Assembly (NCBI GenBank): GCA_045046875.1
Contig: JASFYY010000113.1
Coordinates: forward strand, 1 to 57,685
Source: Verrucomicrobiota bacterium
GTDB taxonomy: Bacteria > Verrucomicrobiota > Verrucomicrobiia > Verrucomicrobiales > DEV007
Direction: 5' to 3'
DNA: 57,685 nt
Made by a program: the position numbers and the translations under genes. Below the pieces are notes generated by a model that was given only the letters and a program-made list of their open reading frames with translations, searched no databases and was not told the origin of the DNA. This document shows, piece by piece, positions 26,722 to 57,616 of this stretch (the stretch's first letter is position 1; the number at the start of each line of letters is the position of its first letter).

Positions 26722-27904
26722 ATGACAACACCGAACAAAAAAGAAGCCAACCGTGGACAACCCGCAGCACTGCGCCGGATAAACATCGACTCCATTGTGC
26801 GAAAAATCCAAACCGACGCTCCCATCAGTCGCGCCGATCTCGCACGCTCTACCAAGCTGAGCTATCCCACGGTGATGAAAATCGGCAACATGCTGCTGGA
26901 TAGCCGGATTGCAGAGTGGCTGCCTGATGAAATCCAGGAATCCAGCGGACGGGGACGCCCGGCTTCATTCATGCAAATGGCCCGCACCCAATCACATGTG
27001 ATTGCCCTCTCCTTCCGCCCCACCCACCATTCTGGCCGCCACTGCCGGCCTCGACGGGCGGACACTACAGGAAATCACTGCACCCATTCCGCAAAGTTAC
27101 CCGGAGATCCTACAGACCAGCCAGCAATTGATCAAAAAATTACAACAAGGCAATGCCTCGCGCACTCTAGGAATCGGGCTCTCTGTGCCAGGCCAGATCG
27201 ACACGGGCTGCAACGATTTGATCCTGCAATCCCCCAACATACCCTGCATGGAAGGGCAGCGCATCAGCACGGATTTGAGTAAGCTCACCCAACTACCAAC
27301 TGTAGCGGTCAGTACCATGCGAGCTCTTTACAACTCGGAAATCATACGTGGACAAGCGACCTCTTACGATAACTTCGTCGTGCTGAGCTATTTTTCCGGT
27401 ATGGCTCTCTCCATGTCATGCAACGGAAACTATGTCACAGGTGCCAATGGCATGGCGGGTGAACTAGGCCACTTCATCGTCGACCCGAAAGGCGAGCTCT
27501 GTGGCTGCGGTAACCGCGGTTGCATCGAAACCCTCGCCACCGATCTCGCGCTTTCACAAGCCATATCGCGTAATCTCGGGCGCAAAGTCGAGGTAGAAGA
27601 AATGCTCGAACTGATACGCAAATCCCCTGAACGTTTTGCGCCCGAAATCGACCACATGCTCAGCTACCTCGCTATCGCCATCGGCGCCACGATTAATATT
27701 TTTAATCCTGAAGCCATATTCCTCTACGGCCGCCTGCTTGAGGTCAACGACACTTTCATCGTTAAACTAAGGAAAAAAATCCCTGATAAATGCCTCAAAA
27801 GCCTGGCTTCCAAATGTTTAGTGAAACGCTCTAAGTCCACTATGATCCAAGGCGCCGCTCTCGCCATTGCCAAGCAACTCACCGGTGAACTCAGTACCAA
27901 CTAG
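26722..27904 (+). pseudogene. ROK family transcriptional regulator split by a one-base insertion (or sequencing error)
   Basis: ORF 26533-27282 has the HTH up to SFRPT and ORF 27002-27904 has the ROK domain (GELGH, CGCGNRGC). Both are colinear with the paralog at 27996; the extra base lies in the C-rich tract 27019-27028. Confidence 0.85.
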
Positions 27905-27995
27905 CAGCATGTGCCTATTCGCATATAAGCTACCACCTATGTCCACCTGATCCGCCCTTGACAAGCACACAAGATTTTACAACGTTTTCACTGCA

Positions 27996-29201
27996 ATGAG
28001 TAATAATCCGGAAACCACCCACAATAAAAGTAACAAAGAGGTTAACCCCGGGCAACCAGGATCTCTACGCCGCATCAATATTGAGCGCATTGTGCGCAAG
28101 ATCCAGACCGACTCCCCCATCACCCGCTCGGATTTGGTACGCTCCACTGGATTGAGCTACCCCACCGTGATGAAAATTGCCGATTTCCTGCTGGAAAAAA
28201 ACATGGTGGAATGGGATCTGGATGAAAACAACGAAACCGGCGGTCGCGGACGTCCCGCTTCCTACATGCAAATGGCAGGCAACTCGGCCCATGTGATCGC
28301 CATCTCTTTCCGTCCTACTTACATCCATGGCGCGATATCCTCCCTTGATGGCAAGATCATCAAAGAAATGGAGTGCCCCATCCCCTCAACTTACCCGGAA
28401 ATACTCGAAGCCAGTGTCCGATTAATCAAGGACTTGCAACAAGGCAGTAAGTCACGAACACTGGGAGTAGGACTGGCCAGTCCCGGCCTGCTGGAAATAG
28501 GCAAGCACTCGAAACTCACCATCTCAGCAAATATTCCCGCCCTCACCGAACACTTCATCGCGGAAGATCTTGCTGAACTCATCAACCTACCGACGGTCAT
28601 CGTCGGCACAATGCGCTCCTTGTACAATTCCGAAATCATACGCGGCCATGCCGTCGATCACAAAAACTTTGCCATTTTGAACTACTACGCAGGAATGGGG
28701 CTCGCCGTTTCAAGTAACGGCAACTACATTGATGGTGCCCACGGAATGGCTGGCGAGTTGGGACACATCGTCGTCGAAGTCGGCGGAGAACTTTGCGGTT
28801 GTGGCAACCGGGGTTGCTTGGAAACCCGTGCCACCGACCACGCCCTGGCTAAATCCATCTCCAAGAAAATGGAGCGCACCATCAGCGTCGATGAAATGAG
28901 CGAATTGATTCGTAAATCTCCCAGCCGTTTCGAAGACGAAATCGACCAGATGCTCAACTTCCTGGCGATCTCCATCGGCATGACGATCAATATCTTCAAC
29001 CCTGAAACGGTACTGCTCTACGGAAGGCTGCTCGACATCCACCCTTCTTTTTTCGACAAATTACAGAAAAAAGTTCCCGCCACCTGCCTCAGCAGCCTGG
29101 CCGCCACCTGCACTTTGAAAAAATCCAATTCACGCACCATCGAAGGAGCCGCCCTGGCCATCGTTGAAGAACTGACCAACAAGTTAAGCTCAAAAAACTA
29201 A
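27996..29201 (+). CDS. ROK family transcriptional regulator (NagC/XylR-like)
   Basis: ITRSDL...LSYPTV HTH, GRGRP, GMAGELGH, CGCGNRGCLE. Confidence 0.93.
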   Translation: MSNNPETTHNKSNKEVNPGQPGSLRRINIERIVRKIQTDSPITRSDLVRSTGLSYPTVMKIADFLLEKNMVEWDLDENNETGGRGRPASYMQMAGNSAHVIAISFRPTYIHGAISSLDGKIIKEMECPIPSTYPEILEASVRLIKDLQQGSKSRTLGVGLASPGLLEIGKHSKLTISANIPALTEHFIAEDLAELINLPTVIVGTMRSLYNSEIIRGHAVDHKNFAILNYYAGMGLAVSSNGNYIDGAHGMAGELGHIVVEVGGELCGCGNRGCLETRATDHALAKSISKKMERTISVDEMSELIRKSPSRFEDEIDQMLNFLAISIGMTINIFNPETVLLYGRLLDIHPSFFDKLQKKVPATCLSSLAATCTLKKSNSRTIEGAALAIVEELTNKLSSKN

Positions 29202-44450: not shown

Positions 44451-45620
44451 CTATAACTTGCCGCAAAACCTCTCGATTCGCTCCAAGCCCTTTTCCAACT
44501 GCTCCATGCTGGTCGCGTAGCTCAAGCGGAAATAGTCATCCGCACCAAAAGCAATGCCTGGCACCGCTGCCACCTGCTCGTCCTCGAGCAATTTGGCGCA
44601 GAACTCCGAGGACTTGAGGCCGGTCTCTGCAATGTTGGGGAAAAGATAAAAGGCCCCCTCGGATTTATAACAGCTCAGCCCCTTGCACTCACTCAAACGA
44701 GCGTGAGCGAACTCACGCCGCTTGGCAAACTCGGTCATCCAAGCAGGTAAATGGGACATCGGTTGGGTCATCGCCGCCACCCCGCCGATTTGAGCAAAAG
44801 AAGTCGGATTACTGGTGCTGTGGCTTTGAAAGGCTGCGATCTTTTTAGCAATCGGCAAGGGTGCCGCCATGAAACCCAGGCGCCAACCCGTCATGCTCCA
44901 GGCTTTGGCAAAACCATGCACAATAATCGTATGCGCTTGATGCTGCTCGGAGCAAGTGGCCACACTTTTATGCACCGCTCCGTCGTAGAGCAAGTGCTCG
45001 TAAATTTCGTCGCTCAAGATCAATACCCCCCGCTGCACACAAACATCCCCCAAGGCCCTGATCTCATCCGGGCTGTAAACCACCCCGGTGGGATTGCTCG
45101 GTGAGTTGAGAATAAAAATCCGCGTATTCTCATTGATCGCTGCACGTAACTGATCCGGAGTGACCTTGAAATGAGTCTCGTCTCCCGTCTCCAAAATCAC
45201 CGGTGTGGCCCCCGCCATGCGCACCATTTCAGGATAACTCAACCAGTATGGGGCCGGCACGATCACTTCGTCCCCTTGCTCACACAGAGCCATCATCACA
45301 TTAAAACAAGAATGTTTTCCTCCGCAGGAAACCACGATCTGTCCGGCTTCATATTTCAAACCATTCTCACGCTCGAACTTATCCGCAATCGCCTGCCGCA
45401 ACTCAGGGATACCTGCCGCCGGAGTGTATTTGGTGAAGCCCTCATCCAGTGCTTTTTTGGCTGCATCCTTAACAAAATCCGGGGTGTCAAAATCCGGCTG
45501 ACCGGTTCCAAAACCCACCACATCGATCCCGGCTGCTTTCATTTCCCTGGCTTTGCCATCGATCGCCAATGTCACTGAGGGAGTCAATGAAGCCGCCCGC
45601 TCCGAAAATTTGTATTCCAT
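44451..45620 (-). CDS. PLP-dependent aminotransferase class I (aspartate aminotransferase type)
   Basis: GQPDF, TKYT, NSPSNPTG, SDEIY, AKAWSMTGWRLG, PGIAFG, RLSYA. Confidence 0.95.
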   Translation of the reverse strand: MEYKFSERAASLTPSVTLAIDGKAREMKAAGIDVVGFGTGQPDFDTPDFVKDAAKKALDEGFTKYTPAAGIPELRQAIADKFERENGLKYEAGQIVVSCGGKHSCFNVMMALCEQGDEVIVPAPYWLSYPEMVRMAGATPVILETGDETHFKVTPDQLRAAINENTRIFILNSPSNPTGVVYSPDEIRALGDVCVQRGVLILSDEIYEHLLYDGAVHKSVATCSEQHQAHTIIVHGFAKAWSMTGWRLGFMAAPLPIAKKIAAFQSHSTSNPTSFAQIGGVAAMTQPMSHLPAWMTEFAKRREFAHARLSECKGLSCYKSEGAFYLFPNIAETGLKSSEFCAKLLEDEQVAAVPGIAFGADDYFRLSYATSMEQLEKGLERIERFCGKL

Positions 45621-45650
45621 AATTTCTAATTAAAAATTCTTAATTTACTG

Positions 45651-46361
45651 CTACCAGGCACCAGCTCTTTTCCAGCCCAAATGAGGCTGGAAGGCCTCCG
45701 CCGCCACAACCCCCGCCTGATTCCCCCGCGCACTCGTCTGATCTCGCATGATGTCCGCCAAAGGAGAAAAATCAGCGTTGTCACCGCGCGCCAGCTGGCT
45801 TTTATGACAGTCCAGCATGGACAATTTTAGATCAAGGTGATCACTGACATCAAGAAAAAATCCCGGTTCAAAACGAGTCATATTGATCGTATCCATCCAC
45901 CACAGAGTTGGTGGAGATGCCATCGCCGCCGAATCGGTCACATGCCCGGCCGAAGCACAAAACCACGACGAGGCCTCGGCCAAAGCGGAAGCCTGCTGAT
46001 GATCGGGGTGGTAATCTTTGCACGAGTGCGCCAATACCAAAGTGGGTTTGAATTTCCTGAAAATCTCGATCAATACCTTGCGTGACTGGTAATCATCAAA
46101 CAATTCGCCATCAGCAAAACCTGCCTCATAAAACACCGCCCCCAACAGCTCTGCAGCAGCTTGCATCTCAGCGCTTCGCACTTCACCCAGGTCATCCCGC
46201 GGCGGATCACTCTGCCCCTTGTCCCCCCGGCACATCACACAAACCGCAATCGCCGCTCCATCCGCCTTGGCTCGCGCCAGAGTCCCGGCACACAATAGTT
46301 CAGCATCATCCGGATGCGCCACCACGGCAATCACTCGATCATTTTCAAAGTTAAACTTCAT
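45651..46361 (-). CDS. PIG-L/LmbE family N-deacetylase
   Basis: AHPDD, GDKG, R..E, DYHPDH, CHKSQ, AEAF. Confidence 0.92.
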   Translation of the reverse strand: MKFNFENDRVIAVVAHPDDAELLCAGTLARAKADGAAIAVCVMCRGDKGQSDPPRDDLGEVRSAEMQAAAELLGAVFYEAGFADGELFDDYQSRKVLIEIFRKFKPTLVLAHSCKDYHPDHQQASALAEASSWFCASAGHVTDSAAMASPPTLWWMDTINMTRFEPGFFLDVSDHLDLKLSMLDCHKSQLARGDNADFSPLADIMRDQTSARGNQAGVVAAEAFQPHLGWKRAGAW

Positions 46362-46373
46362 CTTTATAAAAAT

Positions 46374-47234
46374 TTATCTTAAACCAATGTCCGGCAATGC
46401 CGCAACATATTCTGCCACCGTCAGCTTGGCGTCCGGGTGATCTTGCATCAGAGAAGCCGGACAGGCCGCACTCACTGAATCGTGCAGAACCCGTCTAACC
46501 ACGGCACTCTGCCACAGTCGATTGCAATAAAAACGCAACTTCTTCGCTCCCAGAATCTCCTTCATACCCACCGTGATCGCGCGTCGGGGAATCACCGACA
46601 AACCACCTCCAACCGTCACTGAATTGATCGTGATCGTTTCACGACTCAAGTTCAAATTACGTGTCGGGCGCGCGGCAAATTCCTCCACCGAACAGACTTC
46701 GCCGGGTTCCGGAGGTTCATTAAAAGCCATGTGACCATTGATACCGATGCCCCCAAAACAAGCATCCAGTCCCCCACGCAATTCAATCAAATCCTGAATT
46801 CCCGCTAAATCCGCCGGATCTGGAAATACCCGGTTTTTTGCCAGAGGAGCCAAGTCAGGGTCGATCAGATCATAAAACTTCCGGTTCATGTAACCACGAA
46901 AGCTCAGTGGATGATCCGCTGGGATCCACTGCTCATCCTCGCTGAGGTATTCGTCCATATTGATCAAAACCACCTGCCGCCAATCCCGTTTTTCACGATT
47001 GATGATCTCAGCCAAAACCGAAAATTGATCTACCGGACCTACCGGAATAATCATCGTCGCCGAACGCCCCTGCGCCAAAGCCTCGTCCACCACCGCCATC
47101 ATCTCCGCCGCCATGTTCGCCGCAATCTCATCCATCCCCTTCACCACCGCCACCGACACCGAAGTCCCCTTCCCCAAATCAGCCTCAGGCACCTTCAAAT
47201 ACTCCGGATATAGTGAGCTCTCCATCTCAATCAT
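46374..47234 (-). CDS. Glucosamine-6-phosphate deaminase/isomerase (NagB)-like protein with an atypical phosphate loop
   Basis: NMDEY, HPLSF, GGIGINGHMAFNEP, AITVGMKEIL, PASL; IPVGPVDQ stands where NagB has LPTGGTP. Confidence 0.88.
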   Translation of the reverse strand: MIEMESSLYPEYLKVPEADLGKGTSVSVAVVKGMDEIAANMAAEMMAVVDEALAQGRSATMIIPVGPVDQFSVLAEIINREKRDWRQVVLINMDEYLSEDEQWIPADHPLSFRGYMNRKFYDLIDPDLAPLAKNRVFPDPADLAGIQDLIELRGGLDACFGGIGINGHMAFNEPPEPGEVCSVEEFAARPTRNLNLSRETITINSVTVGGGLSVIPRRAITVGMKEILGAKKLRFYCNRLWQSAVVRRVLHDSVSAACPASLMQDHPDAKLTVAEYVAALPDIGLR

Positions 47235-47304
47235 GAGTGGATTTTTCACACGCCACCCAACAATTGTCAACCCTTTTATTCCATTATTAGAATAAACCTG
47301 CACC

Positions 47305-47535
47305 CAAATTAGGGGTCAGGCAACAATAATCAAAAACGTGTTGTGAACGAATAGCTCTACTTCAAGCGGCAGGACACTTTGCAGATATCTTATAATTTTT
47401 ACCGCGGATTTCACGGATGTACGCGGATAATATTAATGAAGTCAGGAAATGAAGGAAATGGGGGGAAATGGGGTCAGGGGAAATGGGGTCAGGCAACAAC
47501 AGGGGAAATGGGGTCAGGCAACAATAATCAAAAAC
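47305..47535. repeat. GGGGTCAGGCAACA repeat copies including a G-quadruplex-type tract
   Basis: GGGGTCAGGCAACAATAATCAAAAAC at 47312-47337 and 47510-47535; G6-N4-G4-N3-G4-N4-G4 at 47460-47488. Confidence 0.8.
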
Positions 47536-47667
47536 TGTATTCTCTCTTGAAATAGATAAAACCGATAATGTTAGAATTTTCCTAATCCTTGTCAGCGTAA
47601 ATCGCCCTAGGACTTCGACTCAACGTCAGGTTTCCGCAGGGCCCTATTAGATAAATCTAAAAAAAAT

Positions 47668-47711
47668 TTGACCCATCACATTAAAAGTGATTATTATGTT
47701 ATCATAAATAA
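47668..47711 (+). promoter_or_regulatory. Putative sigma70 promoter with overlapping palindromes (candidate ROK operator)
   Basis: TTGACC at 47668-47673, TATTAT at 47692-47697; ATCAC-N7-GTGAT and TTATG-N4-CATAA inverted repeats. Confidence 0.5.
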
Positions 47712-47752
47712 ACGTCGCGCTTATCGATGTTTATTTTGAAAGCAGATTAAAT

Positions 47753-48988
47753 ATGCATCCACGTCCGAGAGAAACCAAGTTAATTGCGAAAAAAAATCGC
47801 ATCTTGAACGAAATTTTTCGCTCGGGCCGTTGCTCGCGTTTTGATCTCGCCAGACGTCTCAATATCAATGCGACCATGGTAGGCAACTACGTCGACGGCT
47901 TTCTCGCCGAAGGGATCCTAGTCGAAGATAAACCGGTCGCCTCGGGCCCTGGACGTGTGCCCGTTCCGCTCAGACTCAATCCGCACCACGGTTGCCTGTT
48001 GGGCGTCGAGTTCGAAGCTTTGCGAGCGCGTGCGGTGTTATGTGATTTTTCCGGCAAAGTGATCGAAGAAAGACAAATCCCCTTCCACGCCGGCATCCAA
48101 CGTGAAGAGGTCATCACGCAGATCATTTCGCTCTGCAAAGAGCTCATCGCCGCCGCTCAACACCCCCTGATATCCCTCGGAGTGGCCGCCCCCGGTCAAG
48201 TGGATTGCGAAAAGGGGCGCATCCTGCACTACGAACTTTTACCCGACTTCAGTGAAGTTCCCCTGCTGGAACGTTTCCAGGCAGAGATCGACATCCCCAC
48301 CTTCGTCGAAGACAACATCCGCACGGTTGCTTTTGGTGAATTGCTAAGAGGCAATGGCCGGGGCAGTCAGAACTTCCTCTGTCTGGCCGCTCGTTCGGGA
48401 GTCGGACTGGGCATCGTCATCGATGGAAAAATCCACAGTGGCAGCTACGCCATGGCCGGCGAAGCAGGGCACATGGTCTTCCCCACTGCGGACGGGGTGA
48501 AAAACATGACCGAACTGGTTTCCGCCACGGGCTTTGTCAACCACATCCGGTCTTTGCTGAAAACGAAACAAAGCGATCCCACCCACAAAGAGCTGTTCAA
48601 CAAGGGCAAGCATTTGTCCCTACGGGACATCGTCGAAGCTGCAGAAAATGGTGATGATTTTTTTCAACAACAGCTCAGCCAACTCGGCTCCAACCTCGGC
48701 TTACTCACCGCCAACCTCGCCAACCTCTTCGCTCCCGAAAAAATCGTCTTGGCTGGTGAAGTCCCCAACTGCTCCGCTCTAGTGCGTCAATCGATGGAAC
48801 TAACTTTCAGCAAATACACGCTGCCCCAAATCCTAAAAACGGTTCAGCTGGAAGACGGCGCCTTGGGGGAAATGGCTGGTGCCATGGGCGCGGCCTGGAT
48901 GGGATTTGGCCGCCACCTGCCGGAAGACGAAATAACTGTCAGTCGCAAAATAGATAATACCAAGATTTATTCCCAACCAAACCCTTAG
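47753..48988 (+). CDS. ROK family transcriptional regulator
   Basis: SRFDLARRL HTH, GPGR, APGQVD, EDNIR, GVGLG, AGEAGH. Confidence 0.92.
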   Translation: MHPRPRETKLIAKKNRILNEIFRSGRCSRFDLARRLNINATMVGNYVDGFLAEGILVEDKPVASGPGRVPVPLRLNPHHGCLLGVEFEALRARAVLCDFSGKVIEERQIPFHAGIQREEVITQIISLCKELIAAAQHPLISLGVAAPGQVDCEKGRILHYELLPDFSEVPLLERFQAEIDIPTFVEDNIRTVAFGELLRGNGRGSQNFLCLAARSGVGLGIVIDGKIHSGSYAMAGEAGHMVFPTADGVKNMTELVSATGFVNHIRSLLKTKQSDPTHKELFNKGKHLSLRDIVEAAENGDDFFQQQLSQLGSNLGLLTANLANLFAPEKIVLAGEVPNCSALVRQSMELTFSKYTLPQILKTVQLEDGALGEMAGAMGAAWMGFGRHLPEDEITVSRKIDNTKIYSQPNP

Positions 48989-49000
48989 ACCTTTATAACC

Positions 49001-49780
49001 ATGAACTCAAGAGACATCACTGATATCAAAAGCGCCGACATGCTGCGAGCGGATGACTGGAAATTCGAATACCAGCAGAAGTGCAATCCGGAGAATTCCA
49101 ATCTCGATCTGATCACCTACGGCAGCTACCGCATCGCCCCCGGAGCAAACAGCGACGAACTTTATCACCGCAACGAAGAAGCGCTGCTGTTCTGCATGAG
49201 CGGAAAACAAACGATCGAAGTCGAAGGAGAAAAATTCACCCTATCCCATTACGACACGCTCTACATCCCTTTGCAGACCAGCTACCGGATCACAGAGAAT
49301 TCTGACGAGGAAGGCCACATCATCATTTGCCGCGCACCTGCTGAAAATCAGCATCAAGTGTTCTACTCCGAGTGGGAAAAAATCCGCGTCGATGAGGAAC
49401 GCATCCGCCACTTGGATAAAAAAGAAGTCTATATGATGTTCGACGTTAGCGAGAACGCGGACAAACTGGTCGCCGGCTACACCGTTTACGAACCTTTCAC
49501 CCGCGCCTGGCCGCCTCACAACCACACCGACCAGGAGGAAGTTTATATTTTCACCCAAGGCCAGGGTTCCATCGAAGTTTACCCGGACGAAGCTAATAAA
49601 ACCTTTGTTCACAGCATGAACACCATGGATGCAGCGACCATCCCAGTGCTCAACTACCACCCCGTTTACAGTCAGGGCGAAGAACTGCATTTCATCTGGT
49701 GTCTCGCCGGTGAGCGCTACTGGGTCGGCGACAAACACCAATCTTTCATGGATGCCTCGGTTGATGAACTGACCACCTGA
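49001..49780 (+). CDS. KduI/IolB-family cupin isomerase (candidate sulfoquinovose isomerase)
   Basis: Bicupin pattern with YDTLYIP, WPPHNH..QEEVY and YHP metal-binding motifs. Confidence 0.8.
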   Translation: MNSRDITDIKSADMLRADDWKFEYQQKCNPENSNLDLITYGSYRIAPGANSDELYHRNEEALLFCMSGKQTIEVEGEKFTLSHYDTLYIPLQTSYRITENSDEEGHIIICRAPAENQHQVFYSEWEKIRVDEERIRHLDKKEVYMMFDVSENADKLVAGYTVYEPFTRAWPPHNHTDQEEVYIFTQGQGSIEVYPDEANKTFVHSMNTMDAATIPVLNYHPVYSQGEELHFIWCLAGERYWVGDKHQSFMDASVDELTT

Positions 49781-49821
49781 TTTTCTTTAAACTCCAATTA
49801 ATACTAAATCGAATTAATTAT

Positions 49822-51267
49822 ATGGACACTACCACAGACTCAATACGCCCCATTTATCTTAATGGCGAATGGAATGACCAGGGGCCAGCTCTGCAAGTGA
49901 GCAATCCCTCGACAGGCGAAGTTTTTGCCAGCGTCAGCACGATTGACCGCGCGGGTACCAAACAAGCCATCGCTGACGCAGAAGCCTCCTGGAAAGCCTG
50001 GCGCGATCTGACTGGCAAAGAACGCGGTGCCTACTTGCACGCCATCGCTGATGGTATCGAAAAACGCAGCGATGAAATCGCCCGCACTATTTCCCAGGAA
50101 AACGGTAAACCGCTGGCTCAGGGAAAAGGCGAAGTCGGCATGACCATTGATCACTTCCGCTGGTTCGCCGAAGAAGCCCGACGCGCTTACGGGCGGGTCA
50201 TCCCCCATCAAATGGAAGGCAAACGCCATCTCGCCATCCGTCAATCGGTCGGCGTGGTGGGAGCGATCGCACCGTGGAATTTTCCGCTGGTGCTGGCGGT
50301 GCGAAAAGTCGCACCCGCTCTGGCCGCCGGTTGTCCAGTGTTACTCAAACCTGCGAGTGCCACCCCGCTGAGCTCGGTGCTTTTAGCCGAAGCGGTGCAC
50401 GAAGCCGGACTGCCCAAAGGAGTGTTCCAATTACTGGTCGGCAATGCTCGTGAGATCGGTGCGGAGATGATGGAAAACCCAGCCTGCCGCAAAATCACCT
50501 TCACCGGTTCAACCGAAGTCGGCCGCGAACTCATTCGCCAAAGCGCCGACCAGGTCAAAAAACTGTCGATGGAACTCGGCGGCCACGCCCCCCTGATTAT
50601 CTTCGATGATGCCAATCTCGACAACGCAGTGGAAGGTGCCCTGATCACTAAATTCCGCAACGGCGGGCAATCCTGCATCGCCTCTAACCGCATTTATGTG
50701 CAACGCGGCATCTATGAAAAATTTCTCGATCTATTTGTCGAAAAAGCCAAAGCCATGAAGATCGGCGACGGCTTGCAAGACGGCGTCGACATCGGCCCAC
50801 TGATCGATAGCGCAGCGGTCGATACCGCCATCGCCCACATCGAAGCTGCCACCGCATCCGGCGCACGCATCCTCTGCGGCGGCAAACGTGCCGACGGACT
50901 CGGGCCGAGTTTTCTCCAAGCCACCGTCCTGGCCGATGTGCCTGAAGACACCCTGTGCATGAACGAAGAAACCTTCGCCCCGGTCGCCCCGGTGTCAGTG
51001 TTTGACGAAGAAGACGAAGTCATCCAACGCGCCAACGACACCGACTACGGTCTGGCCGCTTATGTTTTCACCGAAAACCTTAACCGCGCCTGGCGTGTCG
51101 CCGAAGCCCTCGAAGCGGGCACCGTCGGTGTCAACGACGCCGTGCCCTCCACCAGTCAATGCCCCTTCGGTGGCATGAAACAAAGCGGCCTCGGCCGCGA
51201 ACTCGGCAGCGAAGGCCTCGACGGCTTTTTAGAAACCAAACATATCTCGTTTGGGGGAATCGGTTGA
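49822..51267 (+). CDS. NAD(P)-dependent aldehyde dehydrogenase, GabD-like (candidate sulfolactaldehyde dehydrogenase SlaB/SftD)
   Basis: PWNFP, FTGSTEVG, MELGG, GQSC, EETF, PFGG.KQSG.GRE; located beside the SqvA-like transaldolase. Confidence 0.9.
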   Translation: MDTTTDSIRPIYLNGEWNDQGPALQVSNPSTGEVFASVSTIDRAGTKQAIADAEASWKAWRDLTGKERGAYLHAIADGIEKRSDEIARTISQENGKPLAQGKGEVGMTIDHFRWFAEEARRAYGRVIPHQMEGKRHLAIRQSVGVVGAIAPWNFPLVLAVRKVAPALAAGCPVLLKPASATPLSSVLLAEAVHEAGLPKGVFQLLVGNAREIGAEMMENPACRKITFTGSTEVGRELIRQSADQVKKLSMELGGHAPLIIFDDANLDNAVEGALITKFRNGGQSCIASNRIYVQRGIYEKFLDLFVEKAKAMKIGDGLQDGVDIGPLIDSAAVDTAIAHIEAATASGARILCGGKRADGLGPSFLQATVLADVPEDTLCMNEETFAPVAPVSVFDEEDEVIQRANDTDYGLAAYVFTENLNRAWRVAEALEAGTVGVNDAVPSTSQCPFGGMKQSGLGRELGSEGLDGFLETKHISFGGIG

Positions 51268-51688
51268 GAATACAGAAGTTAGGAGTTAGGAGTTAGAATG
51301 AGAGAACCTGCAAGAACATTCGAAGATCTTATTGTCTGGCAGAAGGCGCACTCATTTGTGCTTTCTGTCTATCGACTAACACGATCATTCCCTAAGTCAG
51401 AAACCTATGGTCTGACTTCGCAATTCCGGCGTGCCGCCGTTTCAATCCCTGCAAATATCGCCGAAGGTTTCCGCAAGCGAGGCAAAGCAGGTAAAGCCCG
51501 TTATTTCAACATCGCAGAAGGCTCCGCCGAAGAATGCCAATACTATCTAATCTTAACCAAAGACCTTGAATACGGTGACGTTTCCGAACTCTCACCATTA
51601 CATGAAGAAGTTCGCAAATTACTAAACGCCTACTCCCAAACTCTCCGAACCTAAAATTCTAACTCCTCAATTCTAACTTCTAACTACT
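51267..51688. mobile_element. Four-helix-bundle gene cassette bounded by inverted heptamer arrays
   Basis: AGAAGTT/AGGAGTT repeats upstream and AACTCCT/AACTTCT downstream give a ~26-bp stem (51274-51299 with 51656-51681). Confidence 0.6.
51298..51654 (+). CDS. Four helix bundle protein (23S rRNA IVS protein / Avd-like family)
   Basis: FEDLIVWQKA, FPKSETYGLTSQFRRAAVSIPANIAEG, IAEGS..E. Confidence 0.95.
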   Translation: MREPARTFEDLIVWQKAHSFVLSVYRLTRSFPKSETYGLTSQFRRAAVSIPANIAEGFRKRGKAGKARYFNIAEGSAEECQYYLILTKDLEYGDVSELSPLHEEVRKLLNAYSQTLRT

Positions 51689-51689
51689 T

Positions 51690-52352
51690 ATGAAATTATT
51701 CCTCGATAGCGCAATAACAGAAGAGATCGCCTATGCCCTTGAACACTGGGACATGGACGGACTGACCACTAACCCCCGCCATGTGATGGTATCGGGAAAA
51801 CCTTTCCGCACCGTCATCGCCGAGGTCGCCGAATTGGTAAAAGGCACCGACAAACCGGTGAGCGTGGAAGTGAACCCCCACTTCACCGAATGTAAAGAAA
51901 TCGTCGAACAAGGACGCGAACTCGCCGCTCTATCACCCAACTTTGTGATCAAAGTCGGAGCCTGCGAAGGTGGATTCACCGCCATCCGCGAGCTCTCCAA
52001 GGACGGCATCAAAACCAATGCCACCCTCATCATGTCCGTCGCCCAGGCCTGGCATGCCGCCCGTGCCGGAGCGTCATTCATCAGCCCCTTCCTCGGTTGG
52101 AAAGATCAGTTCGGCGATTCTCCCGACGCCCTGATCGGCGAAGTCCGCGCAATGCTGGACGAACACGATTACAAATCTGAAATCATCGCCGCTGCGGTTC
52201 GCAACGCCAGACAAATAGGCGATGTCGCCATCAGCGGAGCACATTGCATCACCGCCGGTCTTGCGGTTTACAAAGAAAGTTTTGGTAACCCCTACACCAC
52301 CATGGGCGAAGGCATCTTCCAAAGCGCCTGGGACCAAACCCCCGAATCCTAA
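51690..52352 (+). CDS. sqvA: Sulfofructose transaldolase (6-deoxy-6-sulfo-D-fructose transaldolase, SqvA/SftT-like)
   Basis: TalC/FSA-type sequence (D6, K88) with TTNPRH (R30), SPFLGWK (W137 instead of the usual R) and AAAVR (R171). This matches the sulfonate pocket I recall for Bacillus SqvA. Confidence 0.85.
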   Translation: MKLFLDSAITEEIAYALEHWDMDGLTTNPRHVMVSGKPFRTVIAEVAELVKGTDKPVSVEVNPHFTECKEIVEQGRELAALSPNFVIKVGACEGGFTAIRELSKDGIKTNATLIMSVAQAWHAARAGASFISPFLGWKDQFGDSPDALIGEVRAMLDEHDYKSEIIAAAVRNARQIGDVAISGAHCITAGLAVYKESFGNPYTTMGEGIFQSAWDQTPES

Positions 52353-52372
52353 ATTCTGAATCCTTCTTCAAC

Positions 52373-53617
52373 ATGCCAAACACAAATTCCAACGACAACC
52401 TCACCACCGATCGCCCCACTTTCGTCACCCATCTCGAATGTGGACTCGAAGGCGATCATTACGAGAGCGATGTCATTCACGAGCTCTCCAAAGCCGGCCG
52501 CCCCTTGTTAGTAAAATACGATCTCGATGCGATCAAAAACGCAGTCAGCAAAGAAGATCTTGCTGCCCGTCCGGCTGATCTGTGGCGTTACCGCGAATTC
52601 CTGCCAGTGCGCAAAACCGAAAACATCGTCAGCCTCGGAGAAATCCAGACTCCACTGGTGCACATGTCAAAATTACAAACTGGCAGCGGAGATCTAATCG
52701 TCAAAGACGAAGGCCGCCTACCCACCGGATCCTTCAAAGCCCGCGGACTCTGTCTCGCGGTCTGCATGGCCAAGGAACTCGGCATCAACAAAATCGCCAT
52801 GCCAACCAATGGCAACGCTGGCGCCGCACTCGCCGCTTACGCCACCCGCGCAGGAATCAGCACCTACGTCTTCTGTCCCGACGACACCCCGGAAATCAAC
52901 GTGCGGGAAATCGCCGCCCAGGGAGCGAAGGTTTGGCGGGTCAACGGCCTGATCAATGACTGTGGAAAAATCGTCGGTCAAGGCAAAGAGCCAATGGGCT
53001 GGTTTGATCTCTCAACACTAAAAGAACCCTACCGCATCGAAGGTAAAAAAACCATGGGACTCGAACTCGCCGACCAACTTGGCTGGAAAGTTCCCGACGT
53101 GATTTTTTACCCCACCGGTGGTGGAACCGGCTTGATCGGTATGTGGAAGGCCTTCAACGAACTGAAAGAAATCGGCTGGCTGCAAGGCAAACTGCCACGC
53201 ATGGTGGCGGTGCAAGCCAGTGGCTGCGCACCGATCGTGAAAGCTTGGCAGGAAGGCAAACGCCACGCCGAACTGTGGCAAGACGCCCACACTGTAGCCG
53301 CCGGAATTCGCGTGCCGGTAGCGGTCGGCGACTTCCTGATTCTGGATGCCGTGCGTGAAAGTGACGGATTCGCCATCGCCATCGACGATGACGCCATCAT
53401 CGCCGCCGGTGAAGAAGTGTCGCAAAAAGAAGGTTTCCTGATGTGCCCCGAAGGCGCCGCCACCTACGCCGCTTACAAACAAGCCCTCGCCGAAGGCACC
53501 GTCAGCCCGGATGAAAGTGCCGTATTATACAACTGCGCCACCGGATTAAAATACGAACTGCCCAGAGCCGACGCCACCCTCGACTGCACGCAGGAAATTG
53601 ATTACAGCAAGCTGTAG
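52373..53617 (+). CDS. Threonine synthase-like fold-type II PLP enzyme (candidate cysteate desulfonating enzyme)
   Basis: LWRY, SLGE..TPL, PTGSFKARG (PLP lysine), TNGNAG, EGKKTMG, PTGGGTG, CPEGAA. Confidence 0.88.
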   Translation: MPNTNSNDNLTTDRPTFVTHLECGLEGDHYESDVIHELSKAGRPLLVKYDLDAIKNAVSKEDLAARPADLWRYREFLPVRKTENIVSLGEIQTPLVHMSKLQTGSGDLIVKDEGRLPTGSFKARGLCLAVCMAKELGINKIAMPTNGNAGAALAAYATRAGISTYVFCPDDTPEINVREIAAQGAKVWRVNGLINDCGKIVGQGKEPMGWFDLSTLKEPYRIEGKKTMGLELADQLGWKVPDVIFYPTGGGTGLIGMWKAFNELKEIGWLQGKLPRMVAVQASGCAPIVKAWQEGKRHAELWQDAHTVAAGIRVPVAVGDFLILDAVRESDGFAIAIDDDAIIAAGEEVSQKEGFLMCPEGAATYAAYKQALAEGTVSPDESAVLYNCATGLKYELPRADATLDCTQEIDYSKL

Positions 53618-53899
53618 AGGCTGTAGCGATTTAGGCTGTAGGCTGTAGGATTCTAATTTGAAAGTTAATTTGGAAATATAGTCGCTCGACTTTGAATATT
53701 TTTCATAAAAACATCGAAAGCGCAAACCTACGACTCACGCCAACACCCTGTCAAACTGCTCACAAAAAATCCAAGAAACCAAAAAAGTCCTCGGTGCCCT
53801 CGTCCGCTCCATGCGTTAGCCCTCCTCTCACTTCAGCACTACCAAAGTGCGCCAAACACACAACCCTACAGTCTACAGCCCAAACACCTACAGCCCTCT
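53616..53899 (+). pseudogene. Decayed four-helix-bundle cassette between inverted GGCTGTA/CTACAGY arrays
   Basis: 53616-53649 pairs with 53865-53899; the internal frame ends SNCSQKIQETKKVLGALVRSMR* (stop 53817-53819), resembling a four-helix-bundle C-terminus. Confidence 0.6.
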
Positions 53900-53903
53900 T
53901 CCC

Positions 53904-54866
53904 ATGATCCTAATCACAGAAAACATCACCGGCACAGCCATGGACCAACTCCGAAAGGATATGGACGTGACTTTTGAACCCGAACTCTGGGCCCACCCCG
54001 AGAAACTCAAAGAGGCGCTCAAAGGAGTCAAAGCGCTCATCGTGCGCAACCAAACCCAGGTGACGGCAGACATCATCGCCGCAGCGGACGGACTGCAAAT
54101 CATCGCTCGTGCCGGAGCCGGGCTGGACAACATCGATATCAAAGCCGCTAGCGACGCCGGCATCGTGGTCACTTCCACTCCCCAGGCCAATTCCATCTCG
54201 GTGGCCGAGCTTGCCGTTGGGCTGATGATCAGCCTGGCGCGACAAATCCCCTCCGCTGACTGGGACACTCGCGCCGGAGGCTGGAACCGCCAGATTTTCA
54301 CCGGTGGAGAGCTATCCGGAAAAACCCTCGGAGTGGTTGGCTTTGGCCGCATCGGCGTGCTCACCGCAACCCGGGCCAAAGTTTTCGGGATGAACATTGT
54401 CGGTCACGATGACTACGTCGATCCTGAGTCCGACGCAGTGAAAGAACTCGACGCCAACATGCTCAGCTTGGATAATTTATTATTCCAGGCCGACTTCATC
54501 ACCTGCCACGTGCCGCTCACCGATGGCACCCGCGAAATGTTCAACGACGACTTATTTAAAAAAATGAAATCAAGCGCGTTTTTCATCAACACCTCGCGTG
54601 GCGAAGTGGTCGACGAAAACGCCCTCGCACGAGCTTTGCAAAATGACCAGATCGGCGGAGCCGCGCTCGACGTGCGGCAAGTCGAACCTCCCGACGCCAG
54701 CAGCCCGCTCAACGGCCTTGGCAATGTCATCCTCACTCCTCACATCGCCGCTTTCACCCGCGAGGCCCAAACCCGGGTCGTCGATGCCGTTTGCCGCGAC
54801 GTCAAAGCCATCCTCAACGGCGAATCCGCCACCGATTTCTTTAATTTCCCCCAACCCCAACTGTAG
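53904..54866 (+). CDS. D-isomer-specific 2-hydroxyacid dehydrogenase, (S)-sulfolactate dehydrogenase SlcC-like
   Basis: ALIVRNQTQVT, RAGAGLDNID, GFGRIG, NTSRG, LDV, TPHIA; no ACT domain, so not a full-length SerA. Confidence 0.85.
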   Translation: MILITENITGTAMDQLRKDMDVTFEPELWAHPEKLKEALKGVKALIVRNQTQVTADIIAAADGLQIIARAGAGLDNIDIKAASDAGIVVTSTPQANSISVAELAVGLMISLARQIPSADWDTRAGGWNRQIFTGGELSGKTLGVVGFGRIGVLTATRAKVFGMNIVGHDDYVDPESDAVKELDANMLSLDNLLFQADFITCHVPLTDGTREMFNDDLFKKMKSSAFFINTSRGEVVDENALARALQNDQIGGAALDVRQVEPPDASSPLNGLGNVILTPHIAAFTREAQTRVVDAVCRDVKAILNGESATDFFNFPQPQL

Positions 54867-54916
54867 GGCGAGCGCCCCGCTTGCCCACCCTCTTCTTTCA
54901 CCCCGCTTGCCCCTAC
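54863..54916. repeat. GTAG...CTAC REP-like pair
   Basis: GTAGGGCGAGCGCCCCGCTTGCCC followed by CCCCGCTTGCCCCTAC. Confidence 0.55.
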
Positions 54917-54937
54917 AAACTCAACTCAATAAAAATC

Positions 54938-55399
54938 ATGTCCATAGAATCCAAACTCGAACAACTCGGCCTCAGCTTGCCGGAAGCCCCCAAACCCGTC
55001 GCCGCCTACATCCCTGCCGTCACCAGCGGCAAACAAGTGATCGTCAGCGGCCAGCTACCGATGCAAAACGGTGAACTCATCAGCACTGGAAAGATCCCCA
55101 GCCAAGTATCGATCGAAGACGCCCAGGCCGCCGCCCGCCAATGTGTGCTCAATGCTCTGGCGGTGCTAAAAGCTGAACTTCAAGGCGACCTCAGCCGCCT
55201 GGTTCGTGTGCTGCGCATCGGTGCTTTTGTGCAAAGCGACGACGACTTTTACGGCCAGCCTCAGGTCGCCAATGGAGCCAGTGAATTTCTGTTGGAACTG
55301 CTCGGCGACGCCGGCCGCCACGCCCGTGCCGCCGTCGGAGTCAACGCCTTGCCACTCAACGCCTCGGTCGAGGTCGAATTCACCTTTGAGGTGGACTAA
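54938..55399 (+). CDS. Rid (YjgF/YER057c/UK114) family imine/enamine deaminase
   Basis: PKPVAAY, SGQLP, ANGASE, GRHARAAVG (catalytic Arg present), LPLNASVEVE. Confidence 0.92.
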   Translation: MSIESKLEQLGLSLPEAPKPVAAYIPAVTSGKQVIVSGQLPMQNGELISTGKIPSQVSIEDAQAAARQCVLNALAVLKAELQGDLSRLVRVLRIGAFVQSDDDFYGQPQVANGASEFLLELLGDAGRHARAAVGVNALPLNASVEVEFTFEVD

Positions 55400-55453: not shown

Positions 55454-56917
55454 ATGAAACGATCCGGTCTTCTCTATCTCATCACGCCTATTGCAGGTTT
55501 GTTCCTCACTGCCTGCCCGAAAGTAGGCATCGACTACACCTCGCCCACCCTGAAAGCTCCCGATGCCTGGAGCCAAAACGTGGTGCGTGACCTCAAAGGC
55601 GGGCAAGGCGGAATCGAAAACTGGTGGAAAAAATTCAACGATTCCACCCTCAACCAACTGATCGAGCTAGCCCGCAAAGCAAATCCCAATCTGGAGATCG
55701 CCTACCAACAGATCAATGAAGCTCGCGCCCGCCGCGGAGTAGCTTACAGCCAACTCTTCCCGGATGCCGCGGCCACTGCCGACTATCAACGCACCCGCGC
55801 CAGCGAATCACTATTTTTTCCTCCTCCCACCAATCCCAATAATTCTTTCTCGATTGGATTTGATTCTGGATGGGAGATCGATGTTTTTGGCGGGATACAA
55901 CGTTCGGTCGAATCTGCACAAGCCAGTGTCGAAGCAGCGGTCGAAGCTTACCGTGACGTGCTGGTTTCGCTCGAAGCAGAAGTCGCCCTCAACTACATCG
56001 AGATGCGCACCCTGCAAAAAAGAATCCGCCTAGCCTATGAAAACATCGAACGCCAGAAGGATTCACACAAACTCACCAAGGATCGCTTTGACGCCGGACT
56101 GGTACCTGAAATCGATGTCACCCAGGCCGAAACCAATCTTTATAATACTGAAGCGGTTGTTCCAGCACTGGAAATCCAACTGGCCTTCGCCCGCAACCGC
56201 CTAGCCTCGCTATTAGGAAATTACGCAGGCAGCCTTGACAAAAAACTGGGGCGCTCAACCACGATCCCCCTACCTCCGCGCAGTCTGGCCATAGGGCTGC
56301 CCGCCAATTTGCTGCGCAGTCGTCCCGACGTGCGTCAAGCCGAACGGGAACTGGCCGCGCAAACCGCCCGGGTCGGCGTCGCCACCGCCGATCTCTATCC
56401 TCGTTTTTCCCTATTGGGCAATCTGAACTTACAAGCCCTCGATACCGATGATTTATTAAAATCCTCCAGCCGGGCATTCGGAATCGCCCCATCTGTGCGC
56501 TGGCAAATCTTCGCAGCCGGAGGCATCCGCAACAATATCCGCATCGAAAAAACCCGCGTCCAGCAGGCTTACAAGGTTTACGAAAATGCGATCTTGCTCG
56601 CCGTCGAAGAAAACGAAAACAGCCTGATCTCAATCAGCAAGGAACGGGTGCGTTTTGCCAAACTCCGTCAGTCAGTCAAAGCTACCGAAAAAACCGTCAA
56701 ACTGGTGAAAGACAACTACCAGAATGGCTTGGTTGATTTCCAAAATGTACTCGACGCCGAACGCTCCTTGTTCACCGCACAAGACGATTCGGCGATCAGT
56801 GAGGGCAGCGTATCTGCTAATTACGTTCGCCTGTTCAAATCTCTGGGCGGAGGCACTGAAACCGTTTTAGCTCCACCAGCAGAAAAAGAAAAAAACTCTG
56901 CCAAAAAGAAAAAATAG
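55454..56917 (+). CDS. Efflux outer-membrane lipoprotein, NodT/OprM family
   Basis: LTAC lipobox, WW..FND..L, WEIDVFG, RPDVRQAER, LYPRFSL, LFKSLGGG. Confidence 0.95.
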   Translation: MKRSGLLYLITPIAGLFLTACPKVGIDYTSPTLKAPDAWSQNVVRDLKGGQGGIENWWKKFNDSTLNQLIELARKANPNLEIAYQQINEARARRGVAYSQLFPDAAATADYQRTRASESLFFPPPTNPNNSFSIGFDSGWEIDVFGGIQRSVESAQASVEAAVEAYRDVLVSLEAEVALNYIEMRTLQKRIRLAYENIERQKDSHKLTKDRFDAGLVPEIDVTQAETNLYNTEAVVPALEIQLAFARNRLASLLGNYAGSLDKKLGRSTTIPLPPRSLAIGLPANLLRSRPDVRQAERELAAQTARVGVATADLYPRFSLLGNLNLQALDTDDLLKSSSRAFGIAPSVRWQIFAAGGIRNNIRIEKTRVQQAYKVYENAILLAVEENENSLISISKERVRFAKLRQSVKATEKTVKLVKDNYQNGLVDFQNVLDAERSLFTAQDDSAISEGSVSANYVRLFKSLGGGTETVLAPPAEKEKNSAKKKK

Positions 56918-56935
56918 CCACAGCGCTCCGACACG

Positions 56936-57616
56936 ATGCCATCCGTGGATACAGTGCAAAACCCGCACCCCTTTCACCGTCGCCATAAAAATGCGATTCT
57001 GTTAGCGACGCTGCTGAGCTTGATCCTGATATCACCATTAGGCCAGCTGTTCAAAGACAGCAAACTGCTTGATATGATACTGGTCACAGTGGTCATGGCG
57101 GCTTCTCTCAATGCGGTTTCCTACCGCAAACGCTCAACCCTTCTCATTGCAATTGGACTGGCAATACTGGCTGTCATTTCCGGTTGGACCCAGGCTTTTG
57201 ATAGCTCCGGGCCGCATGAAAACCACCCGATCTACTTGATTCTCACTCATTCTTTTGGTGCCGCTTTATACATCTTCATCGCAACGCTTTTATTCAAAGT
57301 CATCCTGGCTGAAGATGAGATCACTTTTGATCAGATATTTGCTGGAGTAGTAATCTATATCTTCATTGGCTTGGCTTGGGCCCACTTTTACGGACTGGGT
57401 GAGGTTTTCCACCCAGGCTCGATCACCAGCAGCAATGGCGCCGATCCTAATTTCATCTACTTCAGCTTCGTCACCCTCACCACCCTCGGTTATGGCGATA
57501 TGCTCCCCATCACTCCTATGGCCAAAGCCCTCGTCATTGTCGAAGCCATCACCGGGGTCATGTTTGTCGCCATTCTGGTCTCCACGCTGGTCGGTCGAGT
57601 AAATAGAATGCGCTGA
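56936..57616 (+). CDS. Potassium channel family protein
   Basis: Multiple TM helices; YFSFVTLTTLGYGD selectivity filter. Confidence 0.9.
   Translation: MPSVDTVQNPHPFHRRHKNAILLATLLSLILISPLGQLFKDSKLLDMILVTVVMAASLNAVSYRKRSTLLIAIGLAILAVISGWTQAFDSSGPHENHPIYLILTHSFGAALYIFIATLLFKVILAEDEITFDQIFAGVVIYIFIGLAWAHFYGLGEVFHPGSITSSNGADPNFIYFSFVTLTTLGYGDMLPITPMAKALVIVEAITGVMFVAILVSTLVGRVNRMR

Follow-up and report, generated by a model that had tools for sequence, protein, structure and literature searches.

Sulfoglycolysis by way of a transaldolase (sulfo-TAL, also called sulfo-SFT) has been described in Firmicutes and in a small number of further phyla (PMC7491151, PMC12890257). In Paracoccus wurundjeri, a single cell takes a sulfosugar via sulfolactate to pyruvate and sulfite, using a sulfofucose Entner-Doudoroff pathway in tandem with SlcC, ComC and SuyAB (PMC12421959), and cysteate dissimilation has been described for CuyA and CuyB, of which CuyA prefers D-cysteate 50- to 100-fold (PMC11193023). 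Here, we analysed a stretch of 57,685 nucleotides from a Verrucomicrobiota bacterium (assembly GCA_045046875.1, contig JASFYY010000113.1; hereafter the window), in which positions 44451-55399 hold two divergent gene runs around a ROK-family regulator. The leftward run encodes a NagB-like protein, a PIG-L protein and an aminotransferase, and the rightward run consists, in this order, of the ROK gene, a KduI/IolB-family (IolB-like) cupin, a GabD-type aldehyde dehydrogenase, a four-helix-bundle (IVP) gene, a transaldolase, a threonine-synthase-like (ThrC-like) enzyme of the PRK08197 family, a SerA-like dehydrogenase and a Rid protein. We propose, with a probability of roughly 0.55, that this locus serves the catabolism of a 6-deoxy-6-sulfohexose under the control of the ROK regulator and that through it sulfofructose would be converted through L-cysteate to pyruvate, ammonia and sulfite.

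The transaldolase scores 235 bits to the sulfofructose transaldolase BmSF-TAL of P. megaterium versus 137 bits for the next structure, and it has kept the catalytic triad D6, K88 and E60 as well as N110 and S132 (D6/K89/E61 and N111/S133 in the reference numbering). The triad, the sugar-orienting residues and a W-A-R sulfonate site are listed for sulfofructose transaldolase in section 3.4 of PMC11659671, which ascribes to the W-A-R site the orienting of the sulfonate. This site corresponds to W137, A169 and R171 in the window protein, with positions read from the alignment; W137 is present in 67/67 members of the clade, and A169 and R171 in 66/67. By its sequence, the protein is thus placed in the SqvA/SftT clade, as a first-pass annotation of the window had suggested, and it very probably performs the transaldolase step on sulfofructose. 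Transaldolases of the same clade (85-89% identical) adjoin an SftI/SqvD-like isomerase gene in eight Opitutales loci, in place of the NagB-like gene.

A genome scan anchored on the transaldolase returned 57 loci, with 55-97% identity, from Verrucomicrobiota, Planctomycetota and Acidobacteriota; all counts given here cover related and often incomplete genomes. Counting any neighbour that matched at E<=1e-8, we found ROK genes in 24 of these loci, aldehyde dehydrogenase in 22, NagB-like in 22, PIG-L in 17, ThrC-like in 14, SerA-like in 12, IolB-like in 10 and Rid in 9. The order of the genes is shuffled among relatives while the same set recurs, and the clustering exceeds chance. Whole genomes were searched for 50 of the 57 loci (all except L014, L046, L048, L051, L054, L056 and L057). 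The ThrC-like gene is present in 39/50 of them, namely in 14/15 Verrucomicrobiota and 25/35 others, against a background of 8/300 Verrucomicrobiota in a profile search and 37/250 in an even sample of Planctomycetota. The co-occurrence anticipated by the first-pass annotation is therefore seen in other genomes. The pathway is rare: a close transaldolase was found in 2/250 sampled Planctomycetota, both of which carry a PIG-L orthologue, itself present in 3/250 overall.

Protein families were assigned by profile and domain searches, with scores read against the cut-offs of the models, and the features of the segment are as follows:

44451..45620, minus strand: AspC-like aminotransferase of class I; an additional paralogue and candidate sulfopyruvate to L-cysteate transaminase (PF00155)
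45651..46361, minus strand: PIG-L family zinc de-N-acetylase (PF02585)
46374..47234, minus strand: NagB-fold deaminase/isomerase without the canonical phosphate site (the open reading frame extends to 47303; a start at about 47234 is inferred via homologues)
47235..47752, no strand: gap between the divergent gene runs, containing short direct repeats rich in G (promoter scan at chance level)
47753..48988, plus strand: ROK-family repressor (PF00480; NagC/Mlc models below cut-off)
49001..49780, plus strand: KduI/IolB-family cupin isomerase, candidate sulfoquinovose/sulfofructose isomerase (PF04962)
49822..51267, plus strand: aldehyde dehydrogenase of the GabD/succinate semialdehyde dehydrogenase (SSADH) type, candidate sulfolactaldehyde dehydrogenase (RlGabD-type residues; PF00171)
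51298..51654, plus strand: four-helix-bundle (IVP) gene, a passenger insert (TIGR02436, PF05635; in 2/57 loci)
51690..52352, plus strand: putative SqvA/SftT-clade sulfofructose transaldolase (bits to BmSF-TAL, site residues)
52373..53617, plus strand: PRK08197 threonine-synthase-like pyridoxal phosphate (PLP) enzyme, candidate L-cysteate sulfo-lyase (NF006050)
53904..54866, plus strand: short SerA-like D-2-hydroxyacid dehydrogenase, candidate SlcC-like (S)-sulfolactate dehydrogenase (profile/domain matches and context)
54938..55399, plus strand: Rid-family imine deaminase (PF14588, PF01042)

The first-pass annotation had named all of these genes except the IVP gene, which it overlooked, and their positions, orientations and families were borne out by the searches. 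As it had also stated, there is no kinase, phosphotransferase system or importer within 44451-55399. Above-cut-off housekeeping copies of thrC, talAB and nagB sit elsewhere in the host genome (G000, estimated to be 94.7% complete), so that the transaldolase, ThrC-like and NagB-like genes of the locus are extra copies and a housekeeping role for them was rejected. The same genome yielded no match to SftI/SqvD, to a GH31 sulfoquinovosidase or to CuyA (no TIGR01275), and no close orthologue of SuyB or ComC. An Xsc branch was rejected as well, as the best Xsc match in the host genome scores 277 against a cut-off of 676.

In the pathway we propose, sulfofructose would be made from sulfoquinovose by the IolB-like cupin without a kinase, and/or from an N-acetylated 2-amino-6-sulfosugar by the PIG-L and NagB-like proteins, with release of acetate and ammonia. 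Supported by strong homology, the transaldolase would then convert sulfofructose and glyceraldehyde 3-phosphate to fructose 6-phosphate and sulfolactaldehyde. The aldehyde dehydrogenase could produce (S)-sulfolactate, as homology and context suggest, and context points to the SerA-like enzyme for the step from sulfolactate to sulfopyruvate. Sulfopyruvate may be turned into L-cysteate by the AspC of the locus or by a housekeeping paralogue, and from L-cysteate the PRK08197 enzyme would release sulfite and aminoacrylate by PLP-dependent beta-elimination. Finally, Rid would convert aminoacrylate to pyruvate and ammonia, and the sulfite is likely to be exported and oxidised by the products of genes elsewhere (TauE, YeiH, sulfite-oxidase family). 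A route from sulfolactate through sulfopyruvate to cysteate is reportedly used by Roseovarius nubinhibens.

With regard to the entry into the pathway, the NagB-like protein scores 90 bits against a NagB cut-off of 236.9. Its catalytic residues D94, H168, E173 and R192 are present in 91/91 close homologues, and the phosphate-loop residues T41, G43 and T44 as well as K208 of NagB are replaced by V65, P67, V68 and Q242, where we take the numbering and residue roles to be those of E. coli NagB. A structure model (pLDDT 93.7) has glucosamine 6-phosphate (GlcN6P) deaminases as its nearest structures, with a TM-score of about 0.76. The same loop was found in control contexts: in a Vibrio nucleoside cluster, in a Haloarcula cluster with a ketohexokinase, and in a paralogue of the host genome beside an FGGY kinase gene. 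As judged from these relatives, the altered loop marks the loss of the usual phosphate site and not a sulfonate site, and its use as a sulfonate signature was rejected. The host paralogue is encoded on contig C36 (L168:8258-10920), and the Vibrio protein is encoded on a plasmid (L162:6872-14098) within a nucleoside salvage cluster with a hydrolase, S-adenosylhomocysteine hydrolase, a deaminase, a ribokinase and NupC. The Haloarcula plasmids (L161:9995-14711 and L163) carry two NagB-like paralogues, a ketohexokinase, a class I aldolase, GlpR and an ABC transporter, and also split UxaA genes; this cluster is possibly an Embden-Meyerhof-Parnas-type version of the same entry.

The PIG-L residues H16, D120 and H121 are conserved in 64/64 homologues and D19 in 63/64. 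In a set anchored on the NagB-like protein (the best 80 of 243 metagenome matches), PIG-L is encoded in 58/80 loci, and in 58/58 of these directly downstream of the NagB-like gene, within 600 bp. A deacetylase and a deaminase that feed a sulfofructose transaldolase would imply an N-acetyl amino-sulfosugar, and the pair suggests that such a sugar feeds in. We regard this entry as possible, at somewhat less than even odds. An amino-hexose-6-sulfonate has reportedly been described, in older work, from the walls of Halococcus. The IolB-like cupin has weak matches to KduI structures, its metal-site motif is kept in 10/10 homologues and it has no plasmid match. It is encoded in 11/50 genomes, none of which has a close SqvD-like gene (two have relatives with 26-27% identity), and in one locus (L039) it is the only gene of a recognised isomerase family beside the transaldolase, in a genome without a PIG-L orthologue. 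The cupin alone is a plausible sulfoquinovose isomerase of the locus. Sulfoquinovose, the substrate put forward by the first-pass annotation, is retained with regard to the cupin; what the NagB-like and PIG-L proteins suggest is an N-acylated amino-sulfosugar instead. SqvD-like genes (at least 64% identity) are found in 11/50 genomes, a PIG-L orthologue in 37/50, both in 2/50 and neither in 4/50. Because all nine SqvD-only genomes belong to the Opitutales, this swap of entry modules amounts to approximately a single event. An inositol route, with IolB accompanied by IolD, was rejected, since no IolD match in the host genome lies above the cut-off (best 223.8 versus 715). Likewise, a Gfo/Idh/MocA oxidoreductase linked to the cluster (L057) was rejected as a GH188 sulfoquinovosidase; it is a distant relative of 8QC2, to which its 81 bits fall short of the scores of unrelated reductases, GH188 not having been searched genome-wide. 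On contig C57 of the host genome (L172:4144-8998), ROK, Gfo/Idh/MocA and TauE genes lie together with a gene for an MFS transporter that is 50% identical to a cluster-linked MFS protein of relatives, a candidate import and export locus, and a second such MFS protein (53%) is encoded in L173.

Among the NagB-anchored loci of at least 5 kb, 32/50 hold a transaldolase gene; 14 of these genes belong to the SqvA clade and the other 18 to a second one, which is nearest to TalC. The second clade has kept the TalC arginine and shares H31 and a Ser-to-Ala change with SqvA in 19/19 sequences; a change like the latter has also been reported for sulfo-transketolase (PMC11659671, section 3.4). These proteins (L128:5887-6549 and 18 others) are encoded in the same kind of clusters, with NagB-like, PIG-L, aldehyde dehydrogenase and SuyAB or ThrC-like genes, and in L171 beside an SqvD-like gene. 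Judged by sequence, the TalC-derived clade might possibly be a second origin of sulfofructose transaldolase.

As for the middle steps, residues W152-N153-F154, R161, E251, R279 and C285 of the aldehyde dehydrogenase match those of RlGabD. The SerA-like protein is 40-44% identical to both SlcC and SerA, and a tree with long branches, built with references picked by gene context, did not separate the two. Orthologues (53-63%) occur in five SuyAB loci, four of which have a ComC-like gene. The SlcC-like label of the first-pass annotation therefore stands as a candidate based on context, but it did not gain support from the tree. The AspC gene adjoins the cluster in L003, L010 and L015, and a second AspC of the host genome, on contig C2, is 52% identical to that of the locus. 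A LarA C-terminal domain is encoded within a transaldolase cluster in L033 (17568-18089) and could be a racemase module.

The ThrC-like protein scores 654 bits against NF006050 (PRK08197; cut-off 303), 81 against the cysteate synthase model TIGR03844 (cut-off 324.9) and 159.8 against TIGR00260 (cut-off 167.1), for which the true thrC product, encoded on contig C9, scores 282.5. By these models, it is classified as neither CuyA nor cysteate synthase. Since CuyA prefers D-cysteate, a route that is fed by a transaminase and has no racemase in the locus needs an L-specific lyase. The ThrC-like gene was found in 24/137 loci and a split UxaA pair, which we read by context as SuyAB, in 12/137, with both in none (p=0.13 by locus). 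SuyB is present in 2/50 genomes, both ThrC-negative; one of them is the unpublished G333, without which the count is 1/49. The split pair is accompanied by a ComC-like gene in five loci and by the orthologue of the SerA-like gene of the window in five. Two of its closest plasmid relatives were examined: one lies beside YeiH and HpsN-like genes and the other beside TauE, and altronate dehydratases score lower against the SuyB-like gene (29-34%). On one complete chromosome (locus L166), a sulfite-oxidase-family gene, ROK, SqvD-like, ThrC-like, SerA-like, YeiH and ABC transporter genes lie in a row, and the host genome encodes a 64% orthologue of this sulfite-oxidase-family protein as well as TauE and YeiH at sites outside the locus. 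ThrC homologues were also found in ssu (ssuABCD), Ldh_2 and SqvD-like contexts. Of the 6 plasmid homologues inspected (out of 18), all but one lay in clusters of a sulfonate-like or sulfosugar-like kind, and among the eight background copies in Verrucomicrobiota two adjoin YeiH and two an SDF symporter gene, one having both. From this swapping of genes, we consider sulfite release by the ThrC-like enzyme somewhat probable. The first-pass annotation had placed it in a desulfonation module. This role holds up as a candidate and gains strength from comparative genomics, in that the gene and SuyAB alternate among loci and sulfite exporter genes lie next to it, but the models do not support CuyA or cysteate synthase.

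Several relatives of these genes were encountered in other contexts. A third ThrC-like protein of the host genome (contig C133, L169:5785-6861) is encoded among peptidase, SDR and RraA-like genes. A Natribaculum luteum plasmid (L063, L177) holds genes for an enolase-family dehydratase, a DHDPS-family aldolase, an aldehyde dehydrogenase, Gfo6, a ThrC-like protein and a FAD/FeS dehydrogenase in one group, close to which lie a split UxaA pair, TauE and another ThrC-like gene; this resembles a haloarchaeal cluster for a sulfo-Entner-Doudoroff pathway plus mineralisation. The Ca. Chlorohelix plasmid L062 has SqvD-like, sugar ABC transporter, Gfo/Idh/MocA, TIM barrel, SerA-like, ThrC-like and TauE genes in one region. 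In Haloarcula pelagica (L178), YeiH, a split UxaA pair, an HpsN-like 'histidinol dehydrogenase' and a TRAP transporter form what looks like an archaeal cluster for the degradation of dihydroxypropanesulfonate.

A number of findings weigh against the sulfohexose pathway proposed here. SSADH shares the arginines of the aldehyde dehydrogenase and scores higher, the tree did not place the SerA-like dehydrogenase with SlcC, and AspC orthologues (at least 77%) occur in only 5/15 transaldolase-bearing Verrucomicrobiota genomes. The SqvD-like protein of the Opitutales loci reaches a score of 160, with the cut-off at 700, the altered NagB loop is also met next to kinase genes where the context is not one of sulfonates, and every sample consists of related genomes. 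The mutual exclusion of ThrC-like and SuyAB genes is weak, p=0.045 by genome resting on two related genomes, and five of the eight background ThrC copies in Verrucomicrobiota have no neighbouring YeiH or SDF symporter gene. The core could be right and the PRK08197 enzyme nevertheless not be a cysteate sulfo-lyase, acting on another sulfur amino acid or in a replacement reaction, with the C3-sulfonate excreted or cleaved otherwise. This would fit the complete genome G315, which has the transaldolase and entry genes and no ThrC-type or SuyB match, and the 'threonine synthase' E5Y294 of B. wadsworthia, for which an absence of cysteate sulfo-lyase activity is stated in PMC11193023 (data not shown there; the protein may or may not be of the PRK08197 family). 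It would also fit the presence of the family, often without a transaldolase, in Planctomycetota (37/250 versus 2/250 for a close transaldolase), the Natribaculum plasmid that holds ThrC-like copies and the split UxaA pair together, and the TauE gene of the host genome. For Kolteria novifilia (L016), a cultured host with the cluster but with neither the ThrC-type gene nor SuyB, excretion of the C3-sulfonate is predicted. The tight linkage to SqvD-like, SerA-like and YeiH genes and the lack of a ComC or SuyB orthologue in the host genome argue against it, and we consider it unlikely. The pathway might also be the same from the transaldolase step on, with the NagB fold serving as a plain aldose-ketose isomerase for sulfoquinovose, PIG-L acting separately and no amino-sulfosugar involved. 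Sulfoquinovose is abundant, 35/37 NagB-like/PIG-L genomes lack SqvD, and no annotated deacetylase lies near the NagB-like relatives of Haloarcula and Vibrio. In addition, our literature searches found no paper on amino-sulfoquinovose, and one review, in its accessible text, counts only two C-sulfo monosaccharides (PMC11407970). Yet PIG-L follows the NagB-like gene in 58/80 loci and always directly, an IolB-like isomerase is encoded separately in the window, and the host genome has no GH31 and the linked Gfo/Idh/MocA protein of L057 is not close to GH188, which leaves this reading on the unlikely side.

The remaining alternatives concern the substrate. Sulfate esters would offer a parallel route, from N-acetylglucosamine (GlcNAc)-6-O-sulfate, by deacetylation and deamination, to fructose-6-sulfate; after the split, oxidation would yield glycerate-3-sulfate and amination serine-O-sulfate, whose cleavage would give pyruvate, ammonia and sulfate. 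A close sulfatase adjoins the cluster in 10/80 NagB loci, neither arginine has been lost from the second transaldolase clade, and serine-O-sulfate is reportedly a good substrate for PLP-dependent elimination. GlcNAc-6-sulfate is, moreover, a known glycan unit (PMC10570127). The W-A-R site is nonetheless described as sulfonate-orienting, sulfite-oxidase-family genes are present in L166 and L006, the surroundings with SuyAB, ComC and ssuD relate to sulfonates, and a sulfatase would render the route needless, all of which makes it improbable. About equally improbable is a carboxylate substrate, in which hexuronates, N-acetyl-hexosaminuronates or an inositol-derived keto-deoxy acid would give a ketose acid that is split by the transaldolase. 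KduI/IolB enzymes act on uronates, the UxaA and Ldh_2 families include sugar-acid enzymes, and amino-uronates are said to be common in bacterial glycans. No IolD lies above the cut-off in the host genome, though, the nearest examined relatives of the split UxaA pair sit in sulfonate contexts, and the links to ThrC-like, YeiH, TauE and sulfite-oxidase genes would be left unexplained. Hardly credible is a neutral, non-phosphorylative GlcNAc route through glucosamine, fructose, glyceraldehyde, glycerate, hydroxypyruvate and serine to pyruvate: NagB-like relatives beside ketohexokinase and FGGY kinase genes do suggest unphosphorylated sugars, but anion-binding arginines are kept in both transaldolase clades, the host genome has a standard nagB, and sulfite exporters would go unexplained. 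We prefer the sulfohexose pathway through L-cysteate.

Within each arm of the locus, the intergenic gaps are mostly 12-71 bp, and a gap of about 290 bp rich in repeats separates the ThrC-like and SerA-like genes. Short G-rich direct repeats lie in the divergent gap (47312-47535), repeat-like flanks surround the IVP gene (51268-51690) and similar short repeats are found between the ThrC-like and SerA-like genes (53610-53900), where L003 has a small open reading frame; these repeats are likely scars of mobile inserts. A promoter and terminator scan stayed at chance level (10 versus 8.0 expected and 19 versus 18.2), and no common operator was evident in the four intergenic regions compared. Downstream of Rid (55454-57616), an outer-membrane efflux protein and a small potassium channel are encoded, kept in 3/57 and 2/57 loci, respectively, and only in the closest relatives; they are probably outside the pathway. 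Two further ROK-family genes at 27002-29201 belong to an unrelated cluster.

If the proposal is correct, the organosulfur cycle would gain two enzyme activities: that of a deaminase for sulfo-aminosugars and that of an L-cysteate sulfo-lyase, which thousands of proteins labelled as threonine synthases would conceal (the PRK08197 family comprises at least 8000). A natural amino-sulfosugar would then have been overlooked, and the known range of sulfoglycolysis would widen to include Verrucomicrobiota and Planctomycetota, where one cell may degrade a sulfosugar completely by a route not yet described. Surveys that demand a sulfoquinovose isomerase together with a transaldolase would miss these loci. 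Two papers from 2026 on aquatic sulfoquinovose turnover (PMC13372026, PMC13436972) do not mention Verrucomicrobiota or Planctomycetota in the accessible main text. We found no paper that links sulfoglycolysis to NagB, PIG-L, IolB, a threonine-synthase-like lyase or hosts of the Planctomycetota-Verrucomicrobiota-Chlamydiota (PVC) group; subscription literature, including the original SqvA work, was thinly covered, and supplements could list such clusters. A more far-reaching proposal joins several of these points: PVC bacteria would mineralise an unrecognised natural N-acetyl-2-amino-6-sulfohexose, which PIG-L and a phosphate-independent NagB would channel into sulfo-transaldolase glycolysis, a TalC-derived second transaldolase would have been recruited to the same job, and PRK08197 would be the L-cysteate sulfo-lyase missing so far, in bacteria as well as in haloarchaea. 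Taken as a whole, this is doubtful.

Taken together, the locus is a candidate for a real, rare and modular variant of sulfo-transaldolase catabolism with two possible new activities. Like the sulfo-TAL system of Priestia megaterium and P. aryabhattai (PMC7491151; PDB 8BC2-4), it combines an SqvA-clade transaldolase with the catalytic and W-A-R residues and a PF00171 aldehyde dehydrogenase, and has no kinase. In contrast to that system, it lacks SftI/SqvD, GH31 and an exporter, its entry consists of the IolB-like cupin and the NagB-like/PIG-L pair, and it has an extra dehydrogenase, aminotransferase, PLP enzyme and Rid. The hosts differ as well, being Verrucomicrobiota, Planctomycetota and Acidobacteriota, the first two of which are unmentioned in the accessible main text of PMC7491151. 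The NagB-like protein shares the fold and the catalytic Asp, His, Glu and Arg with NagB GlcN6P deaminases, whereas the phosphate-loop threonines and the lysine are replaced, the identity in structural alignments is about 22-24%, its partner is PIG-L and not NagA, and no kinase accompanies it. With the CuyA/CuyB system (PMC11193023), the locus has in common a PF00291 PLP enzyme and a Rid neighbour, and some ThrC homologues lie beside a YeiH/CuyZ-type exporter and an SDF symporter; the window enzyme, however, is threonine-synthase-like rather than DcyD-like, is predicted to be L-specific and has no racemase in its locus. The first-pass annotation had taken the full mineralisation of a sulfosugar by a single cell to be new, but P. 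wurundjeri has already been shown to turn a sulfosugar into pyruvate and sulfite within one cell, by way of sulfolactate (PMC12421959). That route is of the Entner-Doudoroff type, with a racemase pair and SuyAB as its last part, whereas the route of the window is of the transaldolase type and appears to end via cysteate.

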